This document shows positions 7,844-63,199 of a DNA stretch of 64,000 nt, piece after piece (position 1 is the stretch's first letter; each line of letters opens with the position of its first letter). The position numbers and the translations under genes were made by a program. Source of the DNA: a virus. The stretch lies in IMG/VR virus record IMGVR_UViG_3300026290_000001. One strand, 5' to 3'. The notes below the pieces were generated by a model. It was not told the origin of the DNA and ran no database searches. It saw only the letters and a program-made list of their open reading frames with translations.

Positions 7844-8686
7844 TTACCTCACCACCTTTAGCTGAATTGGCAAACTAACTTCAGGTTTATCCATCGCATA
7901 TAATGTTATAGAATTATTAGCAGTTGTTACACGATAAATTTTACCCCACTCATTTACTCGTTCTTTATCTGTAGCAAATGTGCCACTCATTACTACGTCA
8001 ACTATAGGATTGTCATTTGACGATATTCCAGTTACCGTTTGCGTTTTCGTATATGGGGCTTCTGTACCTGTCCAAGTAGTATCAAGTGTTGTCGTAAGCG
8101 TAGCGTGATATACGTGTCCTAATTTACTTATTGTCGCACCATCTGCCAGATGGTTAGCAAACTTTTTCCCAACCCCACTAACCAAAGGTCTTTTATCGAC
8201 AATTATATTTACAGTTTTATCCGCATTTGTACTAATAGTACCAATTAATAGACTTCCATCTGTAATTGTTCCATCTATACTACTAGCAAAATTTCCATCA
8301 TTTTTAAGATATATAGTATAGGTTATACTGGCCGATACTGGATTAATAGTAAAAGTTGTATCAGATGTTTTAGTTATAGTATTTATTGTATTTCCACTAA
8401 ATGTTTCACCAGTACCACTAGCAATAACTATACTTAATGTATCTGTACCACTCGTATAAAATGCAGATTTTATTCTAAATGGACTATCCAATTCTAATGA
8501 ATTTAATAAAAATCTCGCATCTTTCCATGTTGCTCCTAAATCTCTAGGATCAGTACCACCTAAAGTAACATTTGCATCATCAGCAACATGGATAATATCT
8601 AAACCACTATATTTATTTCTAATTTCTGCTACTTGCTCATCTGTATGTATAGCAAATACTTTGCTATTTTTAATTACACAAATCAT
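7844..8686 (-). CDS. tail fibre protein (shares a module with 8706-10469)
   Basis: Segment TFTINPVSASITYTIYLKNDGNF...LLIGTISTNADKTVNIIVDKRPLVSGVG is paralogous to a region of the upstream gene. Confidence 0.5.
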   Translation of the reverse strand: MICVIKNSKVFAIHTDEQVAEIRNKYSGLDIIHVADDANVTLGGTDPRDLGATWKDARFLLNSLELDSPFRIKSAFYTSGTDTLSIVIASGTGETFSGNTINTITKTSDTTFTINPVSASITYTIYLKNDGNFASSIDGTITDGSLLIGTISTNADKTVNIIVDKRPLVSGVGKKFANHLADGATISKLGHVYHATLTTTLDTTWTGTEAPYTKTQTVTGISSNDNPIVDVVMSGTFATDKERVNEWGKIYRVTTANNSITLYAMDKPEVSLPIQLKVVR

Positions 8687-8705
8687 AAATTTATATCTCC
8701 CTCCT

Positions 8706-10469
8706 TTACACTATTATCCATGAACCTTTATTTCCCTCAGAATTAGGTTCAGGAGAGAAAATAGGACTGCCACTATAATTAGAACAACGTACATATCCAT
8801 TGTTATATGCAAATATATCAATTAAACCTGCATCACCAACATTAGAATTTGAAGCAAATAAAGAACCTTCTTCACAACAATCTATATTGTATTCCACATT
8901 GTTTTTTGCAATAATTCCCGAACTAAATCCTTTTCCACCATTATTAACTGTTAATCCTGATTTATTTCCACAAACACATATATTTTCTGCCATCATACCC
9001 CCACCAGTAGAATCATAAGCACCTTTTTCAGAATTACCATTTGCTATACAATTATTTATATAAATCCCTGCGAAATTGGAACATTCATAACCATTTTCAT
9101 TATTGGAAGATGCTGTATATGGTGCAGTAATACCTGCTCTGTTAGTTACAAAAAAACCAGATTTAAAACCAGATACTCCAACATTTGTACCACAAGTTAT
9201 GCTTGCGCCTGTTGTTGATAATATTCCATAATTAGTACTAGCATTAGAACCAATAATTGCAACATTATTTAATAATCCTAATTCAGAACGGTCAGCAACA
9301 ATACCATTACAATTTGTAAATTTTAACGTTGTAGTTAAAACAACAAAATCTCCACCCGTTAATGCAACAGCAGGGAATGGAGTACCTTGAAAAGTATTTT
9401 TAACCGTTACTACGTTTCCATTTATATTTATAATTTCATACATTCCACGTAAAACTTCATGATTACCTGTGCCTGTAGTATTTTTTATAATAGCATATTG
9501 TCCTACTTGCATACCTACTGCACTAGCAACTGTTATAGGTACAGACCAATTTCCAGCAGTATCAGAAACACTACCTACGTTTGAAACGGTTGTGGCAATA
9601 GGAGTAGCACCAATTATTCTTATATTAGAACCATTAACATGATTTATTTTAAGTTGAGAAGTATGTTCATACATTTCTGTTAATAAAGAAATAGTTACAG
9701 TAGTTGAACTAGTTATACTAGCAGTTTTTATACTATCTAAAGCATTTGGTATTGTAGTAAAATCACATCCAGTAGAGCCAACAGTTATAGTTTTATTGGC
9801 ATCTATAATAGTATCTGTTAAATGTTTAATAAATTCACTACCTACAGCACTAACTAAAGGTCTTTTATCAGTAATTGTATTTATAGATTTATCTGCATTG
9901 GTACTAATTGTTCCTATTAAAATACTTCCATTTGGAATACTACCATTTGTACTTTTATCAAAATTACCATCATTCTTTAAATAAATATTATAGGTCACGC
10001 TAGCACTTACTGGATTAATATTAAAAGTAGTATCAGATGTTTTTGTAATAGTGTTTAAAGTAGTACTATTAAAACTTTCACCTGAACCCGAAGTAATTAT
10101 TATTGATAAAGTATCTGTTACTGAATTATATTCAGCAGATTTTATCTGAAACGGATACCCATATACATCTTCTACATTACTTTTTAAACTATCATGATCA
10201 TATGCTGTAAATAATCTTCCTATTATCGTTCCATTACTCCATGTCTGTGCTGTCCCTTGAAATCCCCTAGTTACACCAACCAAACTACTACCACTTTTAT
10301 CTGTATATAAAATAGTTTCTGCATTATTACCAGTTCCTATAGTAGCAAGATTAGGTGCATTGGGAAAAACTGAAATATCAGTTACGGGGATGGTAGTTGC
10401 AATACTATTTATATCAGAAGAAAGTGTTGTAAGAGGGGAGTTAATTTTAGCATTATACATTGTTTCCAT
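8706..10469 (-). CDS. tailspike/tail fibre with parallel beta-helix-like C-terminal domain
   Basis: 587 aa; repetitive G/N/S/T-rich segments with spaced Cys/Asn/Gly typical of right-handed beta-helix depolymerases; shared N-terminal module with 7844-8686. Confidence 0.5.
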   Translation of the reverse strand: METMYNAKINSPLTTLSSDINSIATTIPVTDISVFPNAPNLATIGTGNNAETILYTDKSGSSLVGVTRGFQGTAQTWSNGTIIGRLFTAYDHDSLKSNVEDVYGYPFQIKSAEYNSVTDTLSIIITSGSGESFNSTTLNTITKTSDTTFNINPVSASVTYNIYLKNDGNFDKSTNGSIPNGSILIGTISTNADKSINTITDKRPLVSAVGSEFIKHLTDTIIDANKTITVGSTGCDFTTIPNALDSIKTASITSSTTVTISLLTEMYEHTSQLKINHVNGSNIRIIGATPIATTVSNVGSVSDTAGNWSVPITVASAVGMQVGQYAIIKNTTGTGNHEVLRGMYEIININGNVVTVKNTFQGTPFPAVALTGGDFVVLTTTLKFTNCNGIVADRSELGLLNNVAIIGSNASTNYGILSTTGASITCGTNVGVSGFKSGFFVTNRAGITAPYTASSNNENGYECSNFAGIYINNCIANGNSEKGAYDSTGGGMMAENICVCGNKSGLTVNNGGKGFSSGIIAKNNVEYNIDCCEEGSLFASNSNVGDAGLIDIFAYNNGYVRCSNYSGSPIFSPEPNSEGNKGSWIIV

Positions 10470-12128: not shown

Positions 12129-12435
12129 TTTTATAATTCCTCCTTAAATTTATATTTGTAAAATAATAAATAATTTAATAAATATTTAAATATTAAATAT
12201 TAAAACCCATATCTTTTAAATTATCTTCTGATGCCATAAAATCATCTTCAGATATAATAACTTCAATGGGTTTTACCAAACCTTTATCAATTTGTTCCTG
12301 TGTTGCCCAATCAGGATATTTTTCTAATCTGAGCGTTGCTTTCATGCTAATTCCCATTTTTTCATTATTCATAAAATCTAATAATTACCTCCTTATTTTT
12401 CTAGTATATTTATATTAATAAAATAATTAATATCT

Positions 12436-13104: not shown

Positions 13105-14397
13105 TCAGTCATGAGATGAATTGGCTCTGTTCTGTTCATATATAATCCATGATTTTCTTGCATTAATTCTTTGCATGTTAGATATTTTCGGTGTCTTCAT
13201 ACCTCTGGGTGCATTACTAAAATCTATTTTTTCACCATCTATACCCATAAGAATGGCATAACCCGTAGACATTCTACCTTTAATAAAATATTCATTACCT
13301 ATATACCTTACTTTATCAAACTTCCTAAATCCTTCTATTTTACCTGTAGGTATCTTCTGATGACTTCTTACTCCTTTTGCCTGTTGGTAATCGCCTTTAG
13401 GGATACACTTTTTTAATACAGCTTTTTCAGTTTTAAAGCTTACATCAATTAACCCTATATCTTCAATATTATTTAAACAGGCAATAGCTACAGCATCGTA
13501 GTAATGCTCTTTTGGTAATCCCATTAGCTGTCTATGTTCTTTGGTAATAAATCCAAAGGTTTCTTTTGCATTTGGTAGCTGTCTTAATAATTGTTGTCTT
13601 ATACTATTCATCTGTGTTGTGTGTTTTAATTGTCCTTTAATTTTACCATTCTTCTTTAATTTAATTCCTCCTTTGTGCAAACTATTATGACAAGTTTTAC
13701 AAAGTGTAATTAAATTTTCTGCATCATCTGAGCCACCATTTTTTCTAAAAACTATATGATGTACCTCTAATCTGCTGTCTTTACTTTTTCCTTTGCAATA
13801 CTGGCAAATATATTTATCTCTACTTAATACATAAGCTTTAGTATTAGCAAATCCATAATTAGTTCCTTTTTGATAAAGCCATTTATTACTTAATACTGCT
13901 GGATTTTTTAAAGCATGTGGGTCAAATGTTGCTGTTTCTATTATTATATTTGTAATGGGCATTATTGATTTTGCAAAATCAATTTCTTTTAAGTGTGAAT
14001 TAATTTTACTTGTCATTGTAGGAGAAAATCTATCTTTTTTAATGCTGTTTTTCCTATTATTAAATCTAGGTTCCCTATATCTAGTTTTCCTATTCCTTCT
14101 AGTTCTCCTATATTTAGCTCTTTTGTCCATTTTGTCAGATATATCATTTCTAATTTCTACTTCTGATATATAATACACTTCATTTTCGTCATTTGCTACT
14201 GCACTTCCTATTTTACTACTACCAGTATCAATTCCTAAAGTTAAATCTTGTGTATAGTCTGTAGCATGATATAGTAATTTAATTGTAAATGGAGTTCTTC
14301 TTATGCATTTTGCTTTACCATCTTTTAACAATAATCTTGCTATTGCTGGTTTACAAGGCATTAAAGGACTCCCATCTTCATTAATTACATAAACCAT
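13105..14397 (-). CDS. iscB: IscB, OMEGA-family RNA-guided nuclease (PLMP domain, split RuvC, HNH)
   Basis: N-terminus VYVINEDGSPLMPCKPAIARLLLKDGKAKCIRRTPFTIKL (PLMP domain); RuvC-I LGIDTGSSKIGSAV; Arg-rich bridge helix RRTRRNRKTRYREPRFNNRK; RuvC-II ETATFD; HNH CQYCKGKS...LEVHHIVFRKNGGSDDAENLITLCKTCHNSLH; RuvC-III HYYDAVAIA; domain order exactly as in described IscB proteins. Confidence 0.85.
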   Translation of the reverse strand: MVYVINEDGSPLMPCKPAIARLLLKDGKAKCIRRTPFTIKLLYHATDYTQDLTLGIDTGSSKIGSAVANDENEVYYISEVEIRNDISDKMDKRAKYRRTRRNRKTRYREPRFNNRKNSIKKDRFSPTMTSKINSHLKEIDFAKSIMPITNIIIETATFDPHALKNPAVLSNKWLYQKGTNYGFANTKAYVLSRDKYICQYCKGKSKDSRLEVHHIVFRKNGGSDDAENLITLCKTCHNSLHKGGIKLKKNGKIKGQLKHTTQMNSIRQQLLRQLPNAKETFGFITKEHRQLMGLPKEHYYDAVAIACLNNIEDIGLIDVSFKTEKAVLKKCIPKGDYQQAKGVRSHQKIPTGKIEGFRKFDKVRYIGNEYFIKGRMSTGYAILMGIDGEKIDFSNAPRGMKTPKISNMQRINARKSWIIYEQNRANSSHD

Positions 14398-14681
14398 AAA
14401 ATCAAATCCTTTCGGATAAATACTCTGCTTAAAAGCAGGTTATGCGTATCTATATACTATTACCATATATAGAATTCGTCCTCATCTCGACAATGATAAA
14501 ATAGCTTATATGTATATCACACCGAGCCTTACCCTCCAACTCTACTTAGTGATATACGATAGAGCAATGGTCTGATGCGTCAACCAAAGGTATCATAACT
14601 ATTCTATCGTAGTATAAATTTCTCTATACTAAGTCTGGTGAACTTAGACTTTAGAAGCCTCCGACTTTAGTCGGGGGTAGT
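14398..14681 (-). ncRNA. candidate omega RNA of IscB (structured 5' region; guide expected at the high-coordinate end)
   Basis: 284-bp non-coding gap directly upstream of iscB with higher GC than surroundings and several stems readable by eye (CCTCCGACT/AGTCGGGGG, TACGATAGAG/CTATTCTATCGTA, AGTCT..AGACT, CTGCTT..AAGCAG). Confidence 0.45.
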
Positions 14682-14927
14682 TCACTCTATTTCAGGATTG
14701 ATAGATAAATCATCTTTGCTTGTACTATTTACATTAGATAAATTATCTTCATTGGACAAATCATCATTAATAATTTGACTTAATTCGTCTATTTTAGAAC
14801 TTAATTTGATAATCTCTATCTGATACATATTATTTTGTAAACATAAAGTGACTACATCTAAGGGCAAATTACTATTGTTTATTAACTCTGCCAGTTTAAT
14901 ATTAAAATCACTTATAATAAAAATCAC
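14682..14927 (-). CDS. hypothetical protein
   Basis: 81-aa ORF upstream of IscB locus. Confidence 0.25.
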   Translation of the reverse strand: MIFIISDFNIKLAELINNSNLPLDVVTLCLQNNMYQIEIIKLSSKIDELSQIINDDLSNEDNLSNVNSTSKDDLSINPEIE

Positions 14928-35149: not shown

Positions 35150-35190
35150 AATAAAAAGGAGAGGGAAGGTTATTATCCTTCAAATTCTCC
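35150..35190 (-). terminator. terminator-like hairpin (repeated element, second copy at 39373-39404)
   Basis: GGAGAGGGAAGG..CCTTC..TCTCC stem followed by T-run on minus strand. Confidence 0.35.
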
Positions 35191-35193
35191 TAG

Positions 35194-35514
35194 CTAGTTA
35201 TATTTATTTATCAATTTCTTAATAATATTAATACTCTTAAATACTTCTCGTTTTATCTCACTATGAGAATATTGATTTTCAGACAACGCTTGCAATGTTG
35301 CTATTAAAGATAAAAAACTAGCATCTTTTTTTAACTTCAAAATCAAATCCTTACTGCCCGTCAACTCAAGAATAAGACTATCCAAATATGATTTTAAAGT
35401 TTCTGGTTCTGACTCACTTATTGGAAGGATTTTGTACACACGACCAATCAAGAAATTCAGATAATTTAGAAAGAATTCATTGTCAATAATATTATCAATA
35501 TGTACTTTAACCAT
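35194..35514 (-). CDS. hypothetical protein
   Basis: 106-aa ORF. Confidence 0.3.
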   Translation of the reverse strand: MVKVHIDNIIDNEFFLNYLNFLIGRVYKILPISESEPETLKSYLDSLILELTGSKDLILKLKKDASFLSLIATLQALSENQYSHSEIKREVFKSINIIKKLINKYN

Positions 35515-35983: not shown

Positions 35984-36736
35984 TTATTTAATGTTGATAA
36001 AATTGTCAACAGGTTTACCTTCAGGTTGTAAAAGAATATCCAATTCAATACCCATTGATTCTTCGATATAATTCTTTATTTTAATAGAATCCAATTCACC
36101 ACTTTTAATCATTTTTGCCGCTTGTTCGACCACTGAATTCTTATATCCACTAGGTAATTTATCAAACTTTTTCTTAAATGAATTAAAATCAAGTCTTAAA
36201 ATATCAGATACATTATTCAATCCAAGAATTTCTTCATAATGTTTGAAAATGTTTGCATATTTCAAAATTTCAATTTCATCATCTTCTATTACTCTAATCC
36301 AAGGCTCTCGTATAAATCTTGAGTCAGTATTTTTAAGATCAATAAATTCACCAAGTTCTATATTATTTGTATCTCCAGGGTTTTCCCAAACAATTTTATA
36401 ACCAATTTTACGTTTGGATTTATAAATCAATCTACCACTGGATATATTTTTTAAGCAAATCATACGATTAAGATCTGGTTTCCAAGGTTCTTCTTTTGGT
36501 TGGATATTTTTTTTAGATGTTTGAGAAGGTTTAGATTCAAGTTGGGAAGTATCGGTATTCAATTCTAAACTTTTTTTAATTCCTTCTACCTGTTCATCAT
36601 CTAGTTTAGTCATGTGACTTTTTACTTCATATCCTAAATCTTGTGCTGTTTCAATAATCTTTTTATTCTCAATATCTAGTTCCTTTGCCAATTCAAATAC
36701 TTTCATATTAAAATTTACTCCTCTCATTCTTTGCAA
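35984..36736 (-). CDS. hypothetical protein
   Basis: 250-aa ORF. Confidence 0.3.
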   Translation of the reverse strand: MQRMRGVNFNMKVFELAKELDIENKKIIETAQDLGYEVKSHMTKLDDEQVEGIKKSLELNTDTSQLESKPSQTSKKNIQPKEEPWKPDLNRMICLKNISSGRLIYKSKRKIGYKIVWENPGDTNNIELGEFIDLKNTDSRFIREPWIRVIEDDEIEILKYANIFKHYEEILGLNNVSDILRLDFNSFKKKFDKLPSGYKNSVVEQAAKMIKSGELDSIKIKNYIEESMGIELDILLQPEGKPVDNFINIK

Positions 36737-36761
36737 TTAAAAAGAGGGGATTAACCCCTCT
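36733..36761 (-). terminator. intrinsic terminator after putative major capsid gene
   Basis: Stem AGAGGGG-ttaa-CCCCTCT followed on minus strand by TTTTTAATT. Confidence 0.5.
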
Positions 36762-36802: not shown

Positions 36803-37801
36803 TTAGTCAGATATTTGATATCTGCCATAAAGGTCAGTAATTACAATACCAGTACCGTACCGAGTAGCTGCAAAGTAATCTTGGGTCAAATCTTGGTTGG
36901 CAAGTGCATCACCACTGATAATTCTCATTTCACCTTCGGTTACAAATTTTACAGGTTTTGCATCAACGGATACTATATAAAGATCACTTTCAGAAAGTTT
37001 GAAATTATATGTACCAACGGTGTGAACCTGTTTGATTCTCATCATAGGAGTACCATTAAAGTTACCATAATAACCCATTTTGTACATATCATCTTTTGCA
37101 GCATCAGCTATAATAGCAGTAGTTACTTTCCGTAGTGCTTTTCTAGTTCCTGCAATCATGGCAGATTTGCCAGTGGCGGCTTCAACGTGTTCAATTACAT
37201 CAAGTAAATCTTCTTCATCAAAAGAACCATTGTCGGTGAATCCAGCAGGTAAACCAGAGAAAGCACCAGTGAAAGCGGTGTAAATATCATCGTTAATTTT
37301 CAGTTTGAAAGCCTTATCTAATGCTTCAAGCATTTCGTTAAAGTCTACACGTCCGGCGAGTAAACGAGAAAGATGTTCGTATATTTTGATGCCTTTCCAA
37401 GAGGTGGTGATAGAAACATTAGTTCCAACATCTAAACGCTGTCTACGTAGAGATTGAGTTCCATCGGCAATTTCTGAAATTACCAACATGGTGCGGTCTG
37501 GCGCATAGAAACTATTCTGATCACCAAGGGCAAGGTTCTTATATTCCACAAAATTTTCAAAGAAATTATCATCAGGAAGTCCTTCAAGGACAGTGTTTTG
37601 AAGAATCTCTTCTAATATTTCAAACATTGCTACGCCATTTCTACGGAATGATTTATAATCCAATTTGGTAGAACCACCATTGAGTTCTATAAAATGTTGG
37701 CGCAATGCCTCTGTTGCATCGGATTTACTAAATTTATCATGTGAAAATTTATTTTTATAAATATCTTTCGCTAATTTTACCAAAGTTTTATTATCTTCCA
37801 T
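36803..37801 (-). CDS. putative major capsid protein
   Basis: 332 aa, position downstream of portal/protease block, strong RBS, followed by strong terminator. Confidence 0.45.
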   Translation of the reverse strand: MEDNKTLVKLAKDIYKNKFSHDKFSKSDATEALRQHFIELNGGSTKLDYKSFRRNGVAMFEILEEILQNTVLEGLPDDNFFENFVEYKNLALGDQNSFYAPDRTMLVISEIADGTQSLRRQRLDVGTNVSITTSWKGIKIYEHLSRLLAGRVDFNEMLEALDKAFKLKINDDIYTAFTGAFSGLPAGFTDNGSFDEEDLLDVIEHVEAATGKSAMIAGTRKALRKVTTAIIADAAKDDMYKMGYYGNFNGTPMMRIKQVHTVGTYNFKLSESDLYIVSVDAKPVKFVTEGEMRIISGDALANQDLTQDYFAATRYGTGIVITDLYGRYQISD

Positions 37802-37838
37802 TTAATTTATTCCTCCTTTATTTATATTAATAGATTAA

Positions 37839-38369
37839 TTATCTAACACTAATCATCTCTACCACATTAAGATACTTCGAACCATTGTAGATTTCTCTTG
37901 CAATGATTTTTCCATAGAAAACTTCACTCTTAGCAATGTTGGCTACTTCTGCCCACTTAACACCTGTGGCGTCAGGAGCAACATAGGAATTAACTGCGGG
38001 GATGCCACTACCACTGCTAATCGGAGTAATGCAATCATCGCTGATACTAAAAGTGTCACCAACTTCAAGAGGTATTAGAGTAATATTCGCACCTGCGGCA
38101 TTTTGAAACTTGTCTAATGCCTGACCAGATTTCGTTGATTCATCATAGATGATTTCTGGACTGGCTACAAGGTAACAATTAGGAGTAGTTTCACCCCCAG
38201 GTGCCACACACTTCCAGAGTTCTCTTTCTCCCGTAATTAGGGAATGCAATTTTACGATACATCCATTGTCAATAGCAGTAGGATCAGCACCTACATAGTA
38301 CCGTCCACTCTTGATATTACCTGCTTTAGTAGCCTTGATTGCGTCTGTTCTTACGATTCCGTATGCCAT
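37839..38369 (-). CDS. hypothetical head protein (scaffold/decoration candidate)
   Basis: 176-aa ORF immediately upstream of capsid gene. Confidence 0.3.
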   Translation of the reverse strand: MAYGIVRTDAIKATKAGNIKSGRYYVGADPTAIDNGCIVKLHSLITGERELWKCVAPGGETTPNCYLVASPEIIYDESTKSGQALDKFQNAAGANITLIPLEVGDTFSISDDCITPISSGSGIPAVNSYVAPDATGVKWAEVANIAKSEVFYGKIIAREIYNGSKYLNVVEMISVR

Positions 38370-38385
38370 ATTATAAATTCCTCCT

Positions 38386-39366
38386 TTAAATTTTTAGTTC
38401 ATTTTTTAAAATTTCCTCAATATTATCAAATTCCCAATAGGGAATACGAAGCAAAATTATATTATGCTTTTTACAATATTCATTTTTTAGTTCATCATGA
38501 ATTTGTAAAGTTTCAAACTCCTTCTTGGTCATCATACCTTTAACCCATTCATAATGTTGTTTCCCGTCATATTCAATCAACATTCTTAATTGGGTTTTTT
38601 CTTTGTCCCAAAATACAGGAACATCAAATTTAAGTAAACCTCCTCCAACGCCCTTTAAATCATCAAAAGTATATTGGGTGTGATGTGGAATATCATATTT
38701 TGTAAGTAAAATATCTAATTGTTTCTCTCCTTTAGATTCTGCACACTGGGAACAACCTCTATTATTGCAACTTCTACTGAATATTTTTGCTTTCCATTCA
38801 TACCCACATTCTAAACATTTCCACCAAGCGTACTTATTACAACCATAAGTTATATCATAGGGAGTTAAATCGCCATTTTTGGTAGGATGCCACTCTAAGG
38901 TTAGGTCTGGTCTTTTAGTAGCGAGACAGTTTGATAATGTTACTTGCGCCCCTACGCAAACACCACATCCATTACCACTATAAATACCACTCCAATCAGC
39001 TAGAAAAATTTCTCCACAATCTTCTTTTAAACATCTCCATTGCATTTTAGTTTTTGCATTGCTATAATTTGTACTTATTAACTCAAAAGGTTTATTATTT
39101 AATACACACCAATTTTTCATATTTTGAATTGTGTATGGATTAGAAACATCAAATTTCATTGGATTGCTTCTTAAAAATACCGATATACTTTGAAAATAAT
39201 AATAACTATCCATATCTTTAAATGTTAATTTTGAAAGCGCATTCTTATATTTCAAATCAATCAAAATATAACCTTTTGCTAATAAAGTTTCCTTCACTAA
39301 CTCATAAGTCCATTTAGTACCACTTGTATAACCCATAAATTCCTCCTCATCCTTGTTTACAAACAA
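38386..39366 (-). CDS. homing-endonuclease-like protein: zinc-ribbon repeats plus DUF559/Vsr-like PD-(D/E)xK-type domain
   Basis: Repeated W..P..N......W.C..CG.EW zinc-ribbon motifs and C-terminal ...LRMLIEYDGKQHYEWV...LLRIPYWE motif characteristic of endonuclease-domain (DUF559-like) proteins; inserted inside head gene block. Confidence 0.5.
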   Translation of the reverse strand: MFVNKDEEEFMGYTSGTKWTYELVKETLLAKGYILIDLKYKNALSKLTFKDMDSYYYFQSISVFLRSNPMKFDVSNPYTIQNMKNWCVLNNKPFELISTNYSNAKTKMQWRCLKEDCGEIFLADWSGIYSGNGCGVCVGAQVTLSNCLATKRPDLTLEWHPTKNGDLTPYDITYGCNKYAWWKCLECGYEWKAKIFSRSCNNRGCSQCAESKGEKQLDILLTKYDIPHHTQYTFDDLKGVGGGLLKFDVPVFWDKEKTQLRMLIEYDGKQHYEWVKGMMTKKEFETLQIHDELKNEYCKKHNIILLRIPYWEFDNIEEILKNELKI

Positions 39367-39410
39367 AAATAAGGAGAGGGAAGGTTTTTATCCTTCAAAT
39401 CTCCTTTTAT
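39361..39410. terminator. terminator-like hairpin, second copy of repeated element, T/A runs on both sides
   Basis: GGAGAGGGAAGGTTTTTATCCTTCAAATCTCC flanked by A-run upstream and TTTT downstream. Confidence 0.35.
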
Positions 39411-39483
39411 ATAAAGAGGTAGTGGGAACATACCCCACCAGGAGTAACCTCCAAATCTTAATTTCTTTTAATTTTTACTCTAC

Positions 39484-40950
39484 TTACTCTTTCTTCGAAT
39501 ACTTCTCTAAAAATTCATCAACTTTACTATGATTCTCTTCAATCTTCTTACTAAAATCCAACTTCACTTTATCATTTTTATTTTTCTCTTTTGGTTTTGA
39601 AAAATTATTAGCACTCTGAATACCTAAAATCATATAACACTCTTTTTCCAAATCTTTAATTTTAAATTCAGATGCGGTTTCTTTCAATTTTTCATATTCA
39701 GGAATACCTTGAAGTTTATCATCGAATCGAGAGAAAAGATTTTGTTCGGATTCTTTGCGTTCTTCGGCAAATTTTATTGCCTGATATTCACGCAGAGCAA
39801 TTACTTCTTCTTCTAGAGCAGAATAATTGTTTCTCATAATATCAATTGCTTCTTTTTCTTCTTTTGTAAGTCTATATTGGAAAAGTTCAATTCTTTCTCC
39901 CACAAAAGATACAACATCTTCTTCCTTTTTATATCCTTGACGATATATTTTTGTACCTTCCCAATTTTCATATTCAAAACGATCATCATAAACCTGATCA
40001 ATAAAATACCATTCATTATCTTCATCTTCCACGGGAGATAATAATTGATATAAAGCATATCTTATCTCTGAATGCGAAAGTTCAAAAGATTTGATGAATT
40101 TTTCTGGTTCGTTATTATCATCGTTTTCTGAATCTAAATCATTGGTAGAATACAATTCTTTTAATTTCTCCTCGATTTCCTCAAATTGCATCTCTTCTAT
40201 ATTAAAAGGTAATTCTTCTAAAGTTACCTTATATTCAGAAAGCAAAGCAATTATCTTTTCATCCACATTACTACCTCCTTTTTCAGTTTTATCTATATCA
40301 TAATTAGAAAGAGTATTTTTTAACTCTTCCATCATTAAGATAAACTTTTGTTTTGTATATTCTTCAAATGTTCCAGTAGTACCCAAAGCATTTTCCATAC
40401 CAGTACCAGAATCTTTATTTAAAAATGTAATACCTTGATATCTATAATCAGTTATATTAAACACCTTATCTTTTGCATTAAAAGTATATCCATCAATAAT
40501 AATTTCCATAGATAATTTTATATTTTCATCTCTTTCAATTATATCTTCTGCATAATTTGAGTACTCACGCCAAATATATGCATCCACAAAAACATAATTT
40601 TTGCCATTAAATTCTTTTATTTCATGATTACAATTTTCTGGCACAAGCCCAATTGGGGTTTCCTGAAATATTACTTTATATTCTCCTTCTTTTATCTTGT
40701 TGGGTTCTAAAGTCATATCATGGCCACCAAATTGAGGTTGTCCATCTTCATCAAAAATTACATTTGCAAGAATTGGAATGTTTTTTATAGAATCTTTTGC
40801 ATTTTCCATATCTGACACTATAAAATTACTCTTATTTGGGTTCACGCCATCATGACACACCCTTAATCGCATTTTTATAAATTTTTCAGAATCAAAAGAT
40901 TCATCCACTTCATATGTGGTAGCAAGTGAAAGATGTTGCAATTCATTCAA
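39484..40950 (-). CDS. putative prohead protease/scaffold protein
   Basis: 488 aa, acidic coiled-coil C-terminal half, position between portal and capsid. Confidence 0.3.
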   Translation of the reverse strand: MNELQHLSLATTYEVDESFDSEKFIKMRLRVCHDGVNPNKSNFIVSDMENAKDSIKNIPILANVIFDEDGQPQFGGHDMTLEPNKIKEGEYKVIFQETPIGLVPENCNHEIKEFNGKNYVFVDAYIWREYSNYAEDIIERDENIKLSMEIIIDGYTFNAKDKVFNITDYRYQGITFLNKDSGTGMENALGTTGTFEEYTKQKFILMMEELKNTLSNYDIDKTEKGGSNVDEKIIALLSEYKVTLEELPFNIEEMQFEEIEEKLKELYSTNDLDSENDDNNEPEKFIKSFELSHSEIRYALYQLLSPVEDEDNEWYFIDQVYDDRFEYENWEGTKIYRQGYKKEEDVVSFVGERIELFQYRLTKEEKEAIDIMRNNYSALEEEVIALREYQAIKFAEERKESEQNLFSRFDDKLQGIPEYEKLKETASEFKIKDLEKECYMILGIQSANNFSKPKEKNKNDKVKLDFSKKIEENHSKVDEFLEKYSKKE

Positions 40951-41181: not shown

Positions 41182-42708
41182 TTATGTCCTATTATCAGGA
41201 TTATTACTATCAACCACCTGACCTGCTTCTGTTGATCCTTCTATATTATCCCCCTTACTTTTTGCCCCACCTTTATTAGAATCCTGATAAGCTGATTTAA
41301 GTGGCACAAATTTATCCGTAATTTTCATCACATCATTTTCAAGTAGTATCGAATTCATCACATCAGAAGGAGATAGTCCCAAAGACGCACAATAATGACG
41401 TTTTACTGGAAGTCCAACTGTACTTGCTTCTCTATACATAGTTGCTAATTCATTTTTGTTATATCTTGTAATGTCCAAGAAAGTAACCTTGAAATTTATT
41501 TTTTTATTTTCATCTTTCAATCTGCGATTTATCCATCTCTCAAATTGCCGTAATAATTGAAATACAGTTGCTTCATCACTCATAATGGCTTTGTTCAAGG
41601 CGGCACCAGATGCTTTATCACTATTAAAAATAAGTTTTGGTACACCAGCCGAATTATAAATTGAATTCTCTGCCAAACTTACTCCATCTAACTCTCTTTC
41701 ACTTTTATTAAGTTTAATGGATTCTACGGAATCAAAAGGGGATAATGCGATTCCGATTTGATTAGGTAAATTACTACCCATAAGCTGATAGTACTCTTTG
41801 GCAATATCTAAACTTAAGGCGAAATTATTGGCAGAATCATCACTTTTGTTATATGGAATCTTAGCAATAAGTAGTAAATAGTTTTCTAATTCAGTTTTAG
41901 ACATCTGAATATCCTTATACTCATAAAGTGAATAAATATCTTCAAATATTCCCGCCAAAGGTGGTATAGAATAATCGGTGTTAGATATTTTAATGCAAAT
42001 AGTTTTACTAGAATCTAACTCTTGCCATTTCATATTCTTTCTATCTTTTTTATAAATTTCATATTTTTCTCTAAATTCAGGAGCATACCTTTCTAAATCT
42101 TTTGGATAGGTGTCAAAATAATTGAACGAAAAACTGTAATTGTAGCACCCATCCTCAATACTACTTATAGCACAATAATCAGGGTTTAATAAATCAAAAA
42201 AGAAAGAATTTTTAGTTGAATAAATATACCCATACGCAACATCATCTATAAATGCCCTATATGTTAATTTTGAAAATTCATGTTTAATATTCATTGTTTC
42301 TAATAAATTTAATGTTGTTATATATTTTTTTTCTATTGTTGTAATTAAATCTTTAGTAATTTCATAATCAGTTTGGTTATATATATCTACCACATAATCA
42401 AAAGTTAACATTGTGGAAAAATAATCAATTAATCTTCTATAATGAGAAGAACTATCTAACAAAAACCTTGATAAATCTCTTAGTTTCTTTTCATATTTAT
42501 GAGGATTTGCTAACCATGCAATTACATCATTTTTTGAAAATGTTTTATTAAAAGTAGAATTTGGTTGAGTATTATTTAAATCTTTTTTTATGTATTTTGC
42601 AAACTCAGCAAAATGAAGCATCATACGTTGAAACTGCATATCTTCTTTACTTAATGGTACATCGGTTTTAATAATTTCTTCTTTAATATCTGTTTTAGTA
42701 TCTGTCAA
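41182..42708 (-). CDS. putative portal protein
   Basis: 508 aa, directly downstream of large terminase, acidic C-terminus. Confidence 0.45.
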   Translation of the reverse strand: MTDTKTDIKEEIIKTDVPLSKEDMQFQRMMLHFAEFAKYIKKDLNNTQPNSTFNKTFSKNDVIAWLANPHKYEKKLRDLSRFLLDSSSHYRRLIDYFSTMLTFDYVVDIYNQTDYEITKDLITTIEKKYITTLNLLETMNIKHEFSKLTYRAFIDDVAYGYIYSTKNSFFFDLLNPDYCAISSIEDGCYNYSFSFNYFDTYPKDLERYAPEFREKYEIYKKDRKNMKWQELDSSKTICIKISNTDYSIPPLAGIFEDIYSLYEYKDIQMSKTELENYLLLIAKIPYNKSDDSANNFALSLDIAKEYYQLMGSNLPNQIGIALSPFDSVESIKLNKSERELDGVSLAENSIYNSAGVPKLIFNSDKASGAALNKAIMSDEATVFQLLRQFERWINRRLKDENKKINFKVTFLDITRYNKNELATMYREASTVGLPVKRHYCASLGLSPSDVMNSILLENDVMKITDKFVPLKSAYQDSNKGGAKSKGDNIEGSTEAGQVVDSNNPDNRT

Positions 42709-42795
42709 TAAAATTACACCACCTTTCTATGTGAAATTTATATTTATGTTTATTGATTTGTTATTTATATAATTAATTATATTTTTATTTTGTTA

Positions 42796-44670
42796 TTATC
42801 GTTTGCGAATTTGGGGTTTTTTAAATTGAAATAATTCTTGGACATTAATATCGTTGTTGGTTTTTCTTTGTGTAATATGTTTTCTTCTTAATTGTTGCAA
42901 ATACCATGCTAACATGGCAATGCAATATGCACGGTCATCGTGCATGATTCTTTCTTTATCAGGTGGAAGATTATATCTATATCCACCATTAGGACTATCA
43001 AATCTATAAATATTTACCAATTCTTCTTTTGCCAAATCAATATTTTTTAATGCTAATTCTTCATCAAAAGATAATTTATGTATTTTTTGACTAGATTGAA
43101 TATCTTTCTTTTTATTTTTATTATCATCTTCATATTCTACTTCCTGATTCTCAAATAAAGAAATATATCCCTTCATATCATACTCTTCTGTAAATGATAT
43201 TAAATCTAATCCCAACATTTCAACTAATGCATCAAACATTTCATTTTTATATTTTTTAGGACTCATTAATTTTAATTTATCTACTGCATTTGGAAATTTA
43301 GTAATATAATCAGCAGATTCTATTTTATCAATCAACCCTTTATGTGGATTGCCTTGTTGATCAATCCAATCCTCCATAAGATAGTCTGCAATATTTACGC
43401 CAGCACCGCCAGCACCCGAATCAATGAGAATTGCTTCAATATTTTCATAATCAGCACATTGTTTTCCATTGTAATCTAAAATCATTTGTTTTAAATATGC
43501 AATTTGTTCTGGTGTTCTCATTGGTGTTTTTTTCTTCTTACCAATGTCTACAAAACTAACACCATTGCAAATTCTCATTTTATATCCAACTTGTTCATCA
43601 AAATAAATTTCACCAACTAAAGATACCGAATTATCATAACTCCTAGCAGGATCATATCCTATCACAAACTTACTATTATCAGTGTTATATAAAATAGGAG
43701 GTCTAACTTCACTATTTCTAATTATAACTGATCTTTTAATTGCCTGATTTTCTCCGCCTTCATTAGAAAATTTATTATAATACTCTCTTAAGGCTTTAAT
43801 TTTATTCTTTTTCATAGCATCTTCTACAACTTCTTTTTTCAACAAAGATGGGTAAACCTTACCATTATAAGTAGAATTAAATACAATTTCTACATTTATA
43901 TCTGCAACAAAATAATTTTTATTACCTAAAAACATCTCTTTGGCATAATCTCTATATACCTTGTAAAAATATGTGTCCGTACCAGATGCTGAAGATGCAA
44001 ATATTGCTTGGTTAGGAAACTCTTTAGGTAATAAATCTAAGTTTATATCTCCACCTAATTTAAAGTTACTATCTTGTGTAATAAAGGGTAGGGAAGTAAT
44101 AAACAATTCTTCTGGTGCAAAACCACTTTCATCATAAATATTTAAATTACTTCTTTTACTTCTATTATGATCAAAAGCACCATTTAGTGAATTTAAAGCA
44201 CTTCCATTATAAAGTTTATATTGAAATGAAGAAGGATTATGTGTAAATCCATCAGTATCAGACCTACTTTTAACTGTTTCATTATAAAAAACATCTGTTA
44301 ATCCAGTAAAAGAAGCAATTTCTCTTTTTGCTATTTTTTCTATTTTCATAAATGCTTCTTGTGCTTGACTACCAACTCCACTCATTACATATGCTTGAAA
44401 ATTAGATATTAAATTAGTCTTTGCCATTGCAAAAGGTGCAATCATTGTAGTTTTACCACTACCCCTACTCTGACACCATACACAAAAAGGAGTTGTCCAA
44501 CTCATCATAAAAACATACTTTTGACTATCTAAAAAATCAATTCCATAGAAACGTTCACAAAAACGAATGGGGTATTGCCTCCCCCATTGTACAATTTGTA
44601 CTAAACGCATATATCCTTCTAATTTTCTTTGAGACATTTCTTGTTTTGTTTTTTGAATAATATATTCCAT
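42796..44670 (-). CDS. terminase large subunit
   Basis: 624 aa; N-terminal ATPase Walker A CQSRGSGKTT; size and position typical. Confidence 0.8.
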   Translation of the reverse strand: MEYIIQKTKQEMSQRKLEGYMRLVQIVQWGRQYPIRFCERFYGIDFLDSQKYVFMMSWTTPFCVWCQSRGSGKTTMIAPFAMAKTNLISNFQAYVMSGVGSQAQEAFMKIEKIAKREIASFTGLTDVFYNETVKSRSDTDGFTHNPSSFQYKLYNGSALNSLNGAFDHNRSKRSNLNIYDESGFAPEELFITSLPFITQDSNFKLGGDINLDLLPKEFPNQAIFASSASGTDTYFYKVYRDYAKEMFLGNKNYFVADINVEIVFNSTYNGKVYPSLLKKEVVEDAMKKNKIKALREYYNKFSNEGGENQAIKRSVIIRNSEVRPPILYNTDNSKFVIGYDPARSYDNSVSLVGEIYFDEQVGYKMRICNGVSFVDIGKKKKTPMRTPEQIAYLKQMILDYNGKQCADYENIEAILIDSGAGGAGVNIADYLMEDWIDQQGNPHKGLIDKIESADYITKFPNAVDKLKLMSPKKYKNEMFDALVEMLGLDLISFTEEYDMKGYISLFENQEVEYEDDNKNKKKDIQSSQKIHKLSFDEELALKNIDLAKEELVNIYRFDSPNGGYRYNLPPDKERIMHDDRAYCIAMLAWYLQQLRRKHITQRKTNNDINVQELFQFKKPQIRKR

Positions 44671-47255: not shown

Positions 47256-47331
47256 TGGAGCCGAGTATAGGATTTGAACCCATAATCTGTTGTTTACAAG
47301 ACAACTGCCTTATCAATTTGGCTAACCCGGC
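47256..47331 (-). tRNA. tRNA-Thr (anticodon UGU), CCA encoded
   Basis: Minus-strand 76 nt: acceptor GCCGGGU/ACUCGGC, anticodon stem GUUGU/ACAAC with loop CUUGUAA, T-arm AUGGG-UUCAAAU-CCUAU, discriminator U + CCA. Confidence 0.75.
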
Positions 47332-55089: not shown

Positions 55090-55413
55090 TTAATCTTTTT
55101 TCTCTTTCTTTTCCTTAGATTTTTTTGCCTTTTGTAATCTTTCTCCCATTTCTTTCTTTTGAGCCTCAGTTAACTTTTTCTTTTTGGTTGGTGCTCTAAA
55201 TGAAATCAACTTCTTATCACAAACAAATTCTTTTCCCACTAATTCATTATCTTCATCAAATTGATCACTAACATGCTGATATGATTCAGGATACTGTTTA
55301 CAAAGTTTATCCAGTTTGTTTAAATCTGCACGAATAAAAGTTATTATTTGTGCTTTTTTAGAATCTTCATCAATCCCTACGCAAGTATAACGCTCCATTT
55401 TTTCTAATGCCAT
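55090..55413 (-). CDS. hypothetical protein with Lys-rich C-terminal tail
   Basis: 107 aa, C-terminus KKKKLTEAQKKEMGERLQKAKKSKEKKEKKD. Confidence 0.3.
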   Translation of the reverse strand: MALEKMERYTCVGIDEDSKKAQIITFIRADLNKLDKLCKQYPESYQHVSDQFDEDNELVGKEFVCDKKLISFRAPTKKKKLTEAQKKEMGERLQKAKKSKEKKEKKD

Positions 55414-55454
55414 ATGTATAAATTCCTTCTTTCATTTTTATATTAATAAAATAA

Positions 55455-56204
55455 TTAAAATTCCACTAATCTATTTTTCGCTATTTCACAATATTTTTCT
55501 TCTAATTCAATTCCAATACATTTACGTTTAAGATTTCGTGCCGCCAATAAAGTTGTTCCTGAACCACAGGTAAAATCTAAAATAAGATCGTTTTCATTTG
55601 TGTATGTATTAATTAAATATTCCATTAATTCTAATGGTTTTTGTGTAGGATGAAATAAATTATTATTTGGATTTGCAAAATTTAATATATTTTTAGGATA
55701 ACCTTTAGCATTACTATTTCCAAAATGCTTTTCTTTCCCAAAAGTATATTCTCCATCCACTTTATTTTCTCTACTTGGTCTATTATTATTAAATTCTCCA
55801 TAAATTAACCCTTGCGGATTATAAATGCATTGATTTTTATAAAAAACTAAAACATCTTCTATTGCTCTCATTGGTTGTTTTTTAGCATTTAAATGACCAC
55901 TTGGTTTAGTTTTTATCCATTTCCAATCATATTTATATTCTTTAATATTACTAATTCTTAAAAAACTACTAAAAGGTTCTCCTCCAAACAATAATGTAGG
56001 TGTTGTATTTTTTGTTAATTTATGTAATCTATCCCACATGTCATTAAATTTGATAATTTCATCCCATTTACATTTAGTAGTACCGTATGGTGGGTCAGTA
56101 ATTATTGCATCAAATTTAATACCTTTCTCAATAATCTTATCCATTACCTCTAAACAATCACCTTGAAATAATCTTATGTATTCGTCTTTATAGTATAATT
56201 TCAA
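55455..56204 (-). CDS. DNA methyltransferase (amino-MTase), paralog of 56249-57034
   Basis: IITDPPYGTT motif and LDFTCGSGTTLLAA SAM-binding motif; N- and C-termini near-identical to neighbour, central region differs. Confidence 0.8.
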   Translation of the reverse strand: MKLYYKDEYIRLFQGDCLEVMDKIIEKGIKFDAIITDPPYGTTKCKWDEIIKFNDMWDRLHKLTKNTTPTLLFGGEPFSSFLRISNIKEYKYDWKWIKTKPSGHLNAKKQPMRAIEDVLVFYKNQCIYNPQGLIYGEFNNNRPSRENKVDGEYTFGKEKHFGNSNAKGYPKNILNFANPNNNLFHPTQKPLELMEYLINTYTNENDLILDFTCGSGTTLLAARNLKRKCIGIELEEKYCEIAKNRLVEF

Positions 56205-56248
56205 TTTATGTAAATATATCTCCTTTCATTTTTATATTAATAAAATAA

Positions 56249-57034
56249 TTAAAATTCCACTAATCTATTTTTCGCTATTTCACAATATTTTTCTTCTAAT
56301 TCAATTCCAATACATTTACGTTTAAGATTTCTTGCCGCTAACAATGTTGTCCCTGAACCACAGGTAAAATCTAAAATAAGTTCGTTTTCTTTTGTGTATG
56401 TATTAATAAGGTATTCTAATAGTTCAATTGGTTTTTGAGTCGGATGTAATTTTTTCCCTGACATACTAGCGTTGCTTAAAGTATAAATACTTGTTGGATG
56501 TCTATCTTTATATTCTTTATGCCCCAAGTCTTTTATGGTATGTCCTTCTCTTAATGTGCTATTTCTTGAACCATAAAATGTTTTATTAACTTTTTTTATA
56601 TCATCTCGTTTTGTTTTTTGAGGATAATAATTCATTTCATTACCTTTTGAGAAAACTGCTTTTGCTTTACTAAAAATTAAAATATTTTCATGTACTCTAC
56701 CTACTTGAAAATTCATCATTTGAAAATTAGATGGTTTTACTTTATCCCAAATAATTTCATATCTAAATAGTTGAGGATTACTCATAATTAAAGCACTCGT
56801 AAAAGGTTGAGAACCATTCAATACTATTGCACCTTTATCTTTGATTAATTGAGTAATTTTATCCCACATCTTATCAAAAGGAATTATCGTGTCCCATTTA
56901 CATGCTGTAGTACCATAAGGTGGATCAGTTATTATCGCATCAAATTCAATACCTTTCTCAATCAATTTATCCATCACTTCTAAACAGTCACCTTGAAACA
57001 ATCTTATGTATTCATCTTTATAGTATAATTTCAT
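56249..57034 (-). CDS. DNA methyltransferase (amino-MTase), paralog of 55455-56204
   Basis: IITDPPYGTT and LDFTCGSGTTLLAA motifs; upstream/downstream non-coding sequence also duplicated. Confidence 0.8.
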   Translation of the reverse strand: MKLYYKDEYIRLFQGDCLEVMDKLIEKGIEFDAIITDPPYGTTACKWDTIIPFDKMWDKITQLIKDKGAIVLNGSQPFTSALIMSNPQLFRYEIIWDKVKPSNFQMMNFQVGRVHENILIFSKAKAVFSKGNEMNYYPQKTKRDDIKKVNKTFYGSRNSTLREGHTIKDLGHKEYKDRHPTSIYTLSNASMSGKKLHPTQKPIELLEYLINTYTKENELILDFTCGSGTTLLAARNLKRKCIGIELEEKYCEIAKNRLVEF

Positions 57035-62520: not shown

Positions 62521-62600
62521 TAGATATGATCTTTGATAATAGCATAGTAACCTTAGTTTGCCTTACGCAAGCTATCTTTACAAGAAAGGAGGTGGCACGA

Positions 62601-62726
62601 ATGATAATGACTGAAAAAATGAACATAGAAATTGAAAACATTGAAAACATTTTAGCTGATAATGAACTATCCGATACAGAAAAAATCAAGCTTATTGAAC
62701 AGACTATAAAAGCAATAAGAAGGTAA
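62601..62726 (+). CDS. 41-aa small protein, copy A (start refined to ATG with RBS)
   Basis: RBS AAGGAGGTG 8 nt upstream; MIMTEKMNIEIENIENILADNELSDTEKIKLIEQTIKAIRR; near-identical copy at 62980-63105. Confidence 0.4.
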   Translation: MIMTEKMNIEIENIENILADNELSDTEKIKLIEQTIKAIRR

Positions 62727-62760
62727 TACCTTAAATAAAAATAGGAAGGAGGTGAAAAAA

Positions 62761-62940
62761 ATGAAATTATCAAAAATTGATAACAACGGCATAACCTTAT
62801 ATCTAACAATCATAAACGGCATTAACATGCTAACCGGAAACCCTGCTAAAGCTCTAAAATTTGAAACAGCTAAAGCAGCAAACAATTATAAAAACAATCT
62901 CACTCATCCAAACTTGCAGGGATTACAAGTAAGTCTATAA
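62761..62940 (+). CDS. hypothetical small protein
   Basis: RBS GGAAGGAGGTG upstream of ATG at 62761; lies between the duplicated small ORFs. Confidence 0.35.
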   Translation: MKLSKIDNNGITLYLTIINGINMLTGNPAKALKFETAKAANNYKNNLTHPNLQGLQVSL

Positions 62941-62979
62941 AACCGAGATTTTATCTTAACAGGAAAAGAGGTGAAAAAA

Positions 62980-63105
62980 ATGATAATGACTGAAAAAATG
63001 AACATAGAAATTGAAAACATTGAAAACATTTTAGCTGATAATGAATTAACAGATAGTGAAAAAATCCAGTATATTGAACAGACTATAAAAGCAATAAGGA
63101 GGTAA
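62980..63105 (+). CDS. 41-aa small protein, copy B
   Basis: RBS AAAGAGGTG; MIMTEKMNIEIENIENILADNELTDSEKIQYIEQTIKAIRR. Confidence 0.4.
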   Translation: MIMTEKMNIEIENIENILADNELTDSEKIQYIEQTIKAIRR

Positions 63106-63199
63106 TACCTTTTACCCGATAGCACTCACACCATAACAGAGTGCTATTCGTAAAGGGTATTAAAAACCCTAAAAATAAAATTAGAAGGGAATTGATAAA

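Follow-up and report, generated by a model that had tools for sequence, protein, structure and literature searches.

What kind of element is a nuclease gene that stands among the head genes of one phage and is missing from the same place in most of its syntenic relatives? The question is posed by the 64,000-nucleotide (nt) stretch of viral DNA analyzed here (the window; IMG/VR virus record IMGVR_UViG_3300026290_000001), in which a minus-strand gene for a zinc-finger endonuclease lies between the gene of a 488-amino-acid (aa) protein and p176, the gene ahead of the major capsid gene. Phage genomes are known to contain free-standing homing endonuclease genes beside those of the capsid, and a preliminary description of this DNA had read the gene as such an element, which had invaded the structural operon and was bracketed by two copies of a terminator element. 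We find that it is very probably the core of a free-standing homing endonuclease cassette of ~1.1 kb, set between the stop codon of the 488-aa gene and the Shine-Dalgarno (SD) sequence of p176.

Related loci were mapped by tblastn and comprise 21 IMG/VR loci, short contigs with close homologues of the endonuclease, ten metagenome contigs and two contigs from metagenome-assembled genomes (MAGs). The window is L001 of this set, and L048 is a 149-kb contig (NZ_JAJFUC010000015.1) binned as 'Clostridium sp.'. Most relatives, otherwise syntenic, lack the endonuclease in this slot: in L005-L012, L014, L015, L020, L021 and L047, only 23-85 nt without a hairpin separate the 488-aa gene from p176, as at the L005-type junction (...ATATTGAATTAAAAATTAAGGAGGAATTATAATATGGC...). 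The slot is occupied in the window, L002, L004, L018, L032, L033, L041, L043 and L048, by alleles that are near-identical to that of the window (L002, L004), 71% identical to it with an extra zinc finger (L033), ~55% identical (L032) or 37-50% identical (L018, L041, L043). The L032 allele is a mosaic, which matches the window protein at 38 of its first 40 aa and over its last 12 aa at an overall identity of ~55%. A decayed slot is found in L003, where the 488-aa gene, at its stop codon, joins directly onto the final 63 nt of an endonuclease gene, encoding IPYWDFDNIETILKNELKI and the stop, between flanking proteins 97% identical to those of the window. Comparison with relatives that lack the insertion, which the preliminary description had proposed as a check, has recovered empty, occupied and remnant slots; a gene present in all relatives and devoid of endonuclease motifs, which it had named as the refuting outcome, is at odds with a slot that is empty in most of them and with the conserved nuclease motif described below.

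The clearest trace of movement comes from L048, whose proteins have diverged from those of the window (portal 85%, 488-aa protein 80%, p176 73% and capsid protein 86% identity). In the same slot, a block of 1,119 nt differs by only two mismatches (99.8% identity), whereas its flanks are 54-88% identical at the nucleotide level. The shared block runs from 10 nt upstream of the first leader hairpin to nt 26 of p176 and coincides with the cassette boundaries to ~30 nt per side. A near-identical block in so diverged a genome implies that leader and gene moved recently as one unit. Together with the remnant in L003, this bears out the idea of a free-standing mobile endonuclease that invaded the structural operon.

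Aligning the empty site of L005 (...ATATTGAATTAAAAATTAAG / GAGGAATTATAATATGGC) with L048 and the window places the cassette within the SD region of p176. The end of the endonuclease gene, GAA CTA AAA ATT TAA AG, resembles the native sequence just upstream of the p176 SD. Our simplest guess is that the homing target spans the junction and is hence split by the insertion. We posit that, upon co-infection with a cassette-free relative, the enzyme would cut the DNA of that relative at or near the empty junction, a case of intronless homing, and that recombinational repair from the cassette-bearing genome would then copy leader and gene together with a few dozen bases of flanking DNA. The downstream gene p176 is itself a local hot spot of divergence, where nt identity to L003 and L004 falls to 65-82% against a background of 95-100%, with its first ~70 nt conserved. 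We considered immunity to the endonuclease as the cause and rejected it because p176 alleles do not sort by endonuclease presence; the divergence is thus probably unrelated to the endonuclease.

Members of the same family also occupy other slots of the head module. Paralogues lie between p106 and p177 in L005, L013, L019, L034-L036 and L048; those at L048 8573-9640, L005 8706-9842, L019 2443-3819 and L034 3001-4182 are of 35-58% identity and each preceded by a different terminator-like hairpin. The window holds only the downstream copy of the repeated element (copy B, see below) at this place. L048, with a paralogue here and the cassette upstream, thus has the family represented twice within a single head module. 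In the slot that separates the portal gene from a 58-aa ORF, paralogues are found in L012 (37-324) and L021 (2267-3675, a full 381-aa endonuclease), and L006 (3621-4016) features a 43-aa ORF that resembles the endonuclease N-terminus and may be a remnant of it. The same slot carries an unrelated ORF of ~100 aa in L003 (3331-3689) and L005, and only 35 nt in the window.

The endonuclease and its family

The mechanically called ORF (38386-39366, minus strand) opens with TTG at 39366 and codes for 326 aa; GAGGAGG 5 nt upstream of the ATG at 39336 marks the latter as the likely start. The resulting 316-aa protein, whose numbering we use throughout, is identical to an entry of the public collection (P0001), in which the family counts 1,373 proteins at E<=1e-5. 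Conservation was read from an alignment of 35 homologues (A1). Their N-termini are built from one to four copies of a ~60-aa beta-beta-alpha module of CapR-like type, with Pfam CapR matching 2 of the 35. It is followed by a first zinc ribbon, the four cysteines of which (C102, C107, C124, C127) are invariant, and by a second that coincides with the Pfam DUF4379 'treble clef zinc finger' (E about 1.4e-19; found in 35/35 homologues). In the latter, C174, C195 and C198 are invariant and C177, as read from the sequence, completes the second CxxC. DUF723 (PF05265) appears among the precomputed Pfam domains of some matches. The zinc-ribbon repeats of the preliminary description are thus real, and the two DUF4379-type Cys4 fingers and the CapR-like module are presumed to bind and recognize DNA.

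The C-terminal domain is predicted to be a nuclease of the Vsr-like PD-(D/E)xK fold. Across the homologues, G203, E204, D238, E255, G258, H261, D281 and K284 are invariant and D257 is nearly so. With an AlphaFold2 (AF2) model of high confidence (predicted local distance difference test, pLDDT, 93), Foldseek matched this domain in the PDB to Vsr (1cw0_A, prob 0.97) and to the catalytic domain of I-Bth0305I (3r3p_B, prob 1.0, TM 0.68 on target), and further to TnsA (1t0f) and, weakly, the DUF559-like 3hrl; the zinc-finger part matched DUF4379 mitoribosomal proteins. When the PDB was searched by sequence, the single protein and the 35-sequence profile alike returned DUF4379 zinc-finger proteins of trypanosome mitoribosomes only, and no nuclease. 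The DUF559-like domain of the preliminary description accordingly survives at the level of fold and motif (the weak 3hrl match and the PD-(D/E)xK class), as profile searches matched the zinc ribbon to DUF4379 and found no DUF559 (PF04480) in the endonuclease or its homologues. DUF2726, a PD-(D/E)xK family, gives a weak match below the cut-off in the endonuclease (E=0.005) and matches 12/35 homologues (best E=7e-6). Among predicted viral structures, the endonuclease has 258 matches at E<=0.001 from phages and giant viruses, several of them annotated as homing endonuclease, DUF2726, treble-clef zinc finger or restriction endonuclease. Against three same-slot alleles, the window endonuclease shows dN/dS of 0.21-0.36, indicating that these proteins are under purifying selection, and the modeled Vsr-like domain is presumed to cut DNA.

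We place the endonuclease in the group that combines CapR/DUF4379 repeats with a Vsr-like domain, and not with the HNH, DUF559 or I-Bth0305I families proper. It is a further member of a recently noted group of homing endonucleases and ordinary in kind. A 2025 paper described this architecture as a sizeable, overlooked outgroup to the EDxHD/Vsr homing endonucleases (PMC12350094), with which the window protein shares repeated ~60-aa modules with or without zinc, followed by a ~100-aa C-terminal Vsr-like domain; CapR-type, DUF723 and DUF4379 zinc-finger modules bind DNA in phage homing endonucleases (PMC10448857, 2023). Among GenBank phages, the nearest match comes from Staphylococcus phage MarsHill, in the region of its virion RNA polymerase gene, the gene class discussed in PMC12350094. 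Unlike the members of that group in group I/II introns, the window copy is free-standing in an intergenic site of the head operon, and its cassette brings along a conserved structured leader.

The relationship to the EDxHD prototype I-Bth0305I (PMC3239194; PDB 3R3P) is more distant. The two share the Vsr-like nuclease fold, and the window family has an ordered invariant E...D...H...D set, with E204, D238, H261 and D281 in the expected order; their putative equivalence to E170, D196, H213 and D222 of I-Bth0305I is deduced from order and secondary structure. The H-to-D spacing is 9 aa in I-Bth0305I and 20 aa in the window endonuclease, and the former is intron-encoded, with a NUMOD/HTH DNA-binding part in place of the zinc-finger/CapR-like one. 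Alignment of the A1 family to I-Bth0305I of phage 0305phi8-36 (L031:11249-12049) by hhalign gave a probability of 0.3%, that is, no detectable homology, and 3R3P was absent at E<=10 from the PDB profile search. In contrast, the 'homing nuclease' gp194 of the same Bacillus phage 0305phi8-36 (L030 14861-15373) aligned to the A1 family with a probability of 96% (E=2e-9). As gp194 is much nearer to the window nuclease than I-Bth0305I is, this phage has two distinct lineages of Vsr-like endonucleases.

To our knowledge, the family of zinc-finger/CapR-repeat and Vsr-like nucleases, large as it is, has no published biochemistry. The loci assembled here offer it a natural series of empty sites, divergent alleles, a remnant and a sharply bounded 1.1-kb transfer, from which substrates for target mapping can be drawn. 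Since the mobile unit includes the structured leader, it becomes testable how such elements limit their cost in an essential, highly expressed operon.

The repeated element and the structured leader

The 32-bp element of the preliminary description occurs exactly twice in the window, at 39373-39404 (copy A) and 35158-35190 (copy B), and its 28-nt degenerate core likewise matches at 39373 and 35158 against 0.00 matches expected (100 shuffles). The copies agree at 30/32 nt and are ~88% identical over ~43 nt; in a repeat search, they form a pair 36 nt long with 92% identity. Eight variants from the window and its relatives fold alike into a 6-8-bp outer stem, an internal loop (3-4 nt / 2 nt), a 5-bp inner stem and a 7-8-nt loop, with stabilities of -11.5 to -16.3 kcal/mol; the U-tract after the stem reads UUAUUUUUG or UUUUUAUU. 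In copy A, the outer stem has 7 bp, the inner stem 5 bp and the loop 7 nt, and the U-tract lies at 39359-39370. Pairs were counted from individual folds, as MAFFT had put the extra loop base of copy B in stem columns. On this count, L018 has three double compensatory changes, L039 one double and one single change and L032 one G-C to G-U change, and no pair is broken in any variant, which argues that the element is a real structure of terminator type. The earlier reading of it as a terminator thus holds for the hairpin, which with its U-tract on the transcribed strand is intrinsic-terminator-like, and is a prediction as far as regulation is concerned.

What does not hold is that the element brackets the gene. 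Copy A is immediately 5' of the endonuclease gene and sits in the mobile leader, whereas copy B is found 3.2 kb beyond the 3' end of the gene, past p106, in the interval between the p106 stop codon (35194-35196) and the TTG start of p177 (35124). Copy B is kept at this place, with no endonuclease gene beside it in the window, in L003, L004, L037, L038, L040, L042 and L044-L046, whose capsid proteins are 81-100% identical to that of the window. Its conservation there marks it as a native intergenic element of the sub-clade and not as a footprint of the endonuclease. We also considered a mobile island of 4.2 kb delimited by copies A and B, and rejected it since L048 shares only the 1.1-kb cassette and not the block between the copies. 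The similarity of the two suggests that one was copied from the other, in one direction or the other. A scan of viral contigs and metagenome contigs did not find the element beyond the clade; three chance matches fell in the unrelated L025, L028 and L029. A further variant, AGGGGGAUUUGAAGGAUAAAAACCUUCCCCCUCC, with a compensatory change in the outer stem, is present at 926-1000 of L039, a 1.1-kb contig with no endonuclease gene visible on it, ~500 nt downstream of a distant p177-like gene.

The cassette leader spans 147 nt, and L032, L033 and L048 have nearly the same leader even in cases of differing endonuclease bodies. It contains hairpin 1, conserved in these three loci, and copy A as hairpin 2. 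Minimum free energy (MFE) folds of four leader variants (window, L032, L033, L018) predict an alternative in which the inner stem is kept and the outer 3' arm and U-tract of the element re-pair with the SD of the endonuclease gene (-15 to -22 kcal/mol); the L018 hairpin differs in sequence in its middle part and is nonetheless predicted to pair. Folding and covariation point to a regulatory leader, which may sequester the ribosome-binding site (RBS) of the endonuclease gene as in the homing endonuclease genes of T4. We propose that hairpin 2 would act like an intrinsic terminator and that, in read-through RNA, its 3' arm and U-tract would pair with the endonuclease SD, such that termination and sequestration together might keep the nuclease low within a strongly transcribed late operon.

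The capsid gene downstream would be independent of such read-through by virtue of a promoter-like motif of its own. Across the window, matches to the motif TTATTAATATAAATA are enriched (34 with <=2 mismatches versus 7.6 expected), mostly on the coding strand, mostly intergenic and just upstream of SD sequences. Its minus-strand sites include 12407-12421, 37819-37833, 42762-42776, 48010, 55034, 55435, 56229, 57062, 58581 and 59554. The copy at 42762-42776 is directly upstream of the portal gene, and that of the capsid gene (CTATTAATATAAATA) is present in relatives with and without the endonuclease gene; the cassette itself contains no copy of TTATTAATATAAATA. A scan for sigma-70 promoters was not above chance. 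We regard TTATTAATATAAATA as probably a phage promoter, and its TATAAATA core resembles the T4 late promoter. If it is a promoter, the endonuclease would be expressed from read-through RNA only, and the capsid gene would be shielded from the inserted terminator.

The free-standing homing endonuclease genes of T4 (seg, mob and hef) offer a close parallel for such an arrangement, as terminators and RBS-sequestering hairpins accompany them and have been described for I-TevI, I-TevII, I-TevIII, segB and mobE (PMC2988022). The window cassette shares with them the intergenic insertion beside essential genes, the sporadic occurrence among relatives, the replacement of alleles at one locus, the gene-associated terminator (in the cassette, a terminator-like hairpin) and the stable hairpin predicted to sequester the RBS. 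It differs in that the T4 nucleases mostly belong to the GIY-YIG or HNH families, that no internal late promoter freeing the RBS was found in it and that the terminator-like hairpin is placed upstream of the gene, within a leader which is mobile as well. More tentatively, the leader might be a portable riboregulator derived from the hairpin between p106 and p177, a terminator-like structure the 3' arm of which doubles as an anti-SD sequence. If so, the endonuclease gene captured a regulatory element of its host phage and spreads it as a checkpoint on transcription and translation in the head operons that it invades.

Homing and its alternatives

Several points weigh against a homing cassette with a regulatory leader. 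Cleavage activity and target site are known neither for the window endonuclease nor for its close relatives, and no sequence profile ties its nuclease domain to I-Bth0305I or any PDB nuclease, such that the assignment draws on fold and motif. Mosaicism is widespread in the clade, and ordinary recombination could hence spread the cassette without nuclease activity. With regard to the leader, the same anti-SD pairing is predicted for the native copy B before the structural gene p177, which speaks against an endonuclease-specific role, and the pairing of a CCUCC-rich arm with AGGAGG is partly expected from composition. Moreover, a real terminator upstream of p176 would cost p176 expression, and the hairpin may thus be weak or act on RNA stability or processing.

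An intact ORF under purifying selection (dN/dS 0.21-0.36), the persistence of several paralogues in the head modules of the clade and the marker exclusion caused by free-standing endonucleases of T4 (PMC2988022) would all suit a nuclease that has been domesticated for a phage function and is not purely selfish, be it degrading competitor or host DNA or excluding the markers of co-infecting phages. We consider this unlikely, because the gene is missing from most syntenic relatives and has decayed by deletion in L003, moves as a discrete block between diverged genomes and has, across the clade, neither a constant position nor an orthologue.

Less likely still is that the nuclease is inactive or irrelevant and that homologous recombination between mosaic phages spread the cassette passively. 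The clade does abound in mosaic patches unrelated to the cassette, such as p176, p151-p106 and p390, and the window and L048 likewise show 100% identity over the first 100 nt of the capsid gene (window 37702-37801, L048 6001-6100), a second sharp and unexplained patch in a gene of otherwise 66-90% identity. Passive spread is nevertheless hard to reconcile with dN/dS well below 1 and with invariant catalytic and zinc-binding residues that are all kept, and the fit of the identical block to the cassette edges is what break repair with short co-conversion tracts predicts. An HNH enzyme or an endonuclease encoded within a self-splicing intron, as the label of the best PHROG match ('HNH endonuclease', PHROG 559, E=1e-39) and the annotation of some homologues as group I intron proteins would have it, is highly improbable given the Vsr-like catalytic fold, the lack of any HNH Pfam match in the 35 homologues (E<=0.1), the lack of any Rfam intron at the gathering threshold in the window, and flanking genes that are complete, separate ORFs adjacent to each other in empty sites, which together place the gene outside any intron or intein and correct the database label. 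Free-standing homing is therefore the reading that we retain.

The head module and neighboring features

All head-region genes around the endonuclease are on the minus strand (Table 1), transcribed in the order 624-aa ORF, portal, 58-aa ORF, 488-aa gene, endonuclease, p176, capsid gene, p250, p151, p106, copy B, p177 and p390. Among these, the head-gene identities supported here are those of the portal and the capsid protein. The latter is a 332-aa protein ~35% identical to the annotated major capsid proteins of Bacillus phages Thrax1, Thrax3 and Kirov, as well as to structural proteins from Brevibacillus phage Sundance and from the 949 group of lactococcal phages. The preliminary description had the endonuclease interrupt a protease-to-capsid block; the capsid end of this block is supported by the annotated homologues, and the protease end is not, since Pfam, NCBIfam and PDB searches (including a profile search) with the 488-aa protein gave no match. 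NCBIfam returned no matches for the endonuclease and its other neighbors either, and a profile search of the PDB with p176 found none. By fold, the AF2 model of p176 (pLDDT 86) gives only weak matches, each of them to an outer-shell chain of the procapsid of Borrelia phage phiBB-1, from which we predict that p176 may be a surface decoration protein of the capsid.

Table 1. Positions of the cassette, its parts and the surrounding head genes in the window
Feature	Position	Strand	Basis or remark
Laterally transferred block of 1,119 nt (leader, endonuclease gene, p176 SD, first 26 nt of p176)	38344..39462	-	Comparison with L048
Leader hairpin 1	39416..39452	-	Folds; conserved in L032, L033, L048
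Leader hairpin 2 (copy A)	39371..39406	-	Folds; compensatory changes in relatives
Predicted alternative hairpin (element 3' arm and U-tract paired with SD)	39342..39380	-	MFE folds
SD of endonuclease gene (GAGGAGG)	39342..39348	-	Sequence reading
Endonuclease gene	38386..39336	-	316 aa from ATG at 39336; ORF, Pfam/PHROG matches, homologues
N-terminal module, CapR-like type, ~60-90 aa, beta-beta-alpha	39055..39336	-	A1 alignment; AF2 secondary structure
First Cys4 zinc ribbon (C102, C107, C124, C127)	38947..39054	-	Columns invariant in 35 homologues
DUF4379 treble-clef zinc finger, aa 146-200 (C174, C177, C195, C198)	38737..38901	-	Pfam; PDB sequence and fold matches
Vsr-like PD-(D/E)xK nuclease domain, aa 201-316	38389..38736	-	Foldseek; invariant columns; hhalign to gp194
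624-aa ORF	42796-44670	-	First in the described head-region order
Portal	41182-42708	-	PHROG 2739, E=4e-113
488-aa upstream head-module gene	39484..40950	-	PHROG 3313, function unknown; scaffold/protease role unproven
p176, gene downstream of endonuclease	37839..38369	-	176 aa; candidate capsid decoration protein
Promoter-like motif CTATTAATATAAATA	37819..37833	-	Immediately 5' of capsid gene; enriched; conserved in relatives
Major capsid protein, 332 aa	36803..37801	-	~35% aa identity to annotated capsid proteins
Intergenic hairpin (copy B)	35156..35191	-	Between p106 and p177; without endonuclease gene

No relative of the phage itself turned up when the 5-kb region was compared with GenBank phages by blastn. 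The two MAG contigs, L047 (a Tissierellaceae MAG) and L048 (the 'Clostridium sp.' MAG), carry relatives of the capsid gene, and these bins hint at a host among the Clostridia; as bins may hold free phage contigs, the hint falls short of proof. The more distant head-module relatives L034-L036 feature Pfam families named for the Bacillus SPbeta proteins YonB, YomX_C, YomW and YomV, which links this structural module to SPbeta-like phages. Directly 3' of the capsid gene comes a strong hairpin of terminator-like form (AGAGGGGTTAATCCCCTCT with a T-run, 36743-36761, minus strand), followed by the gene for the 250-aa protein (35984-36736, minus strand), the N-terminal IF2_N domain of which (PF04760, E=7e-12) is odd for a head module.

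Farther away in the window, we found an IscB-omegaRNA (OMEGA) element among the phage structural genes (13105-14685, minus strand). It consists of a full-length Rfam HEARO RNA at 14475-14685 (121.7 bits versus a gathering score of 83) and, directly after it, a 430-aa ORF (13105-14397) with RRXRR (E=2e-54) and HNH domains. The window also has a tRNA gene at 47259-47331 (minus strand). Diverged direct-repeat pairs of 160-300 nt at 8141-10112, 55413-57031 and 62573-63111, with 74-91% identity and a spacing of 379-1672 nt, probably mark tandem paralogous genes.

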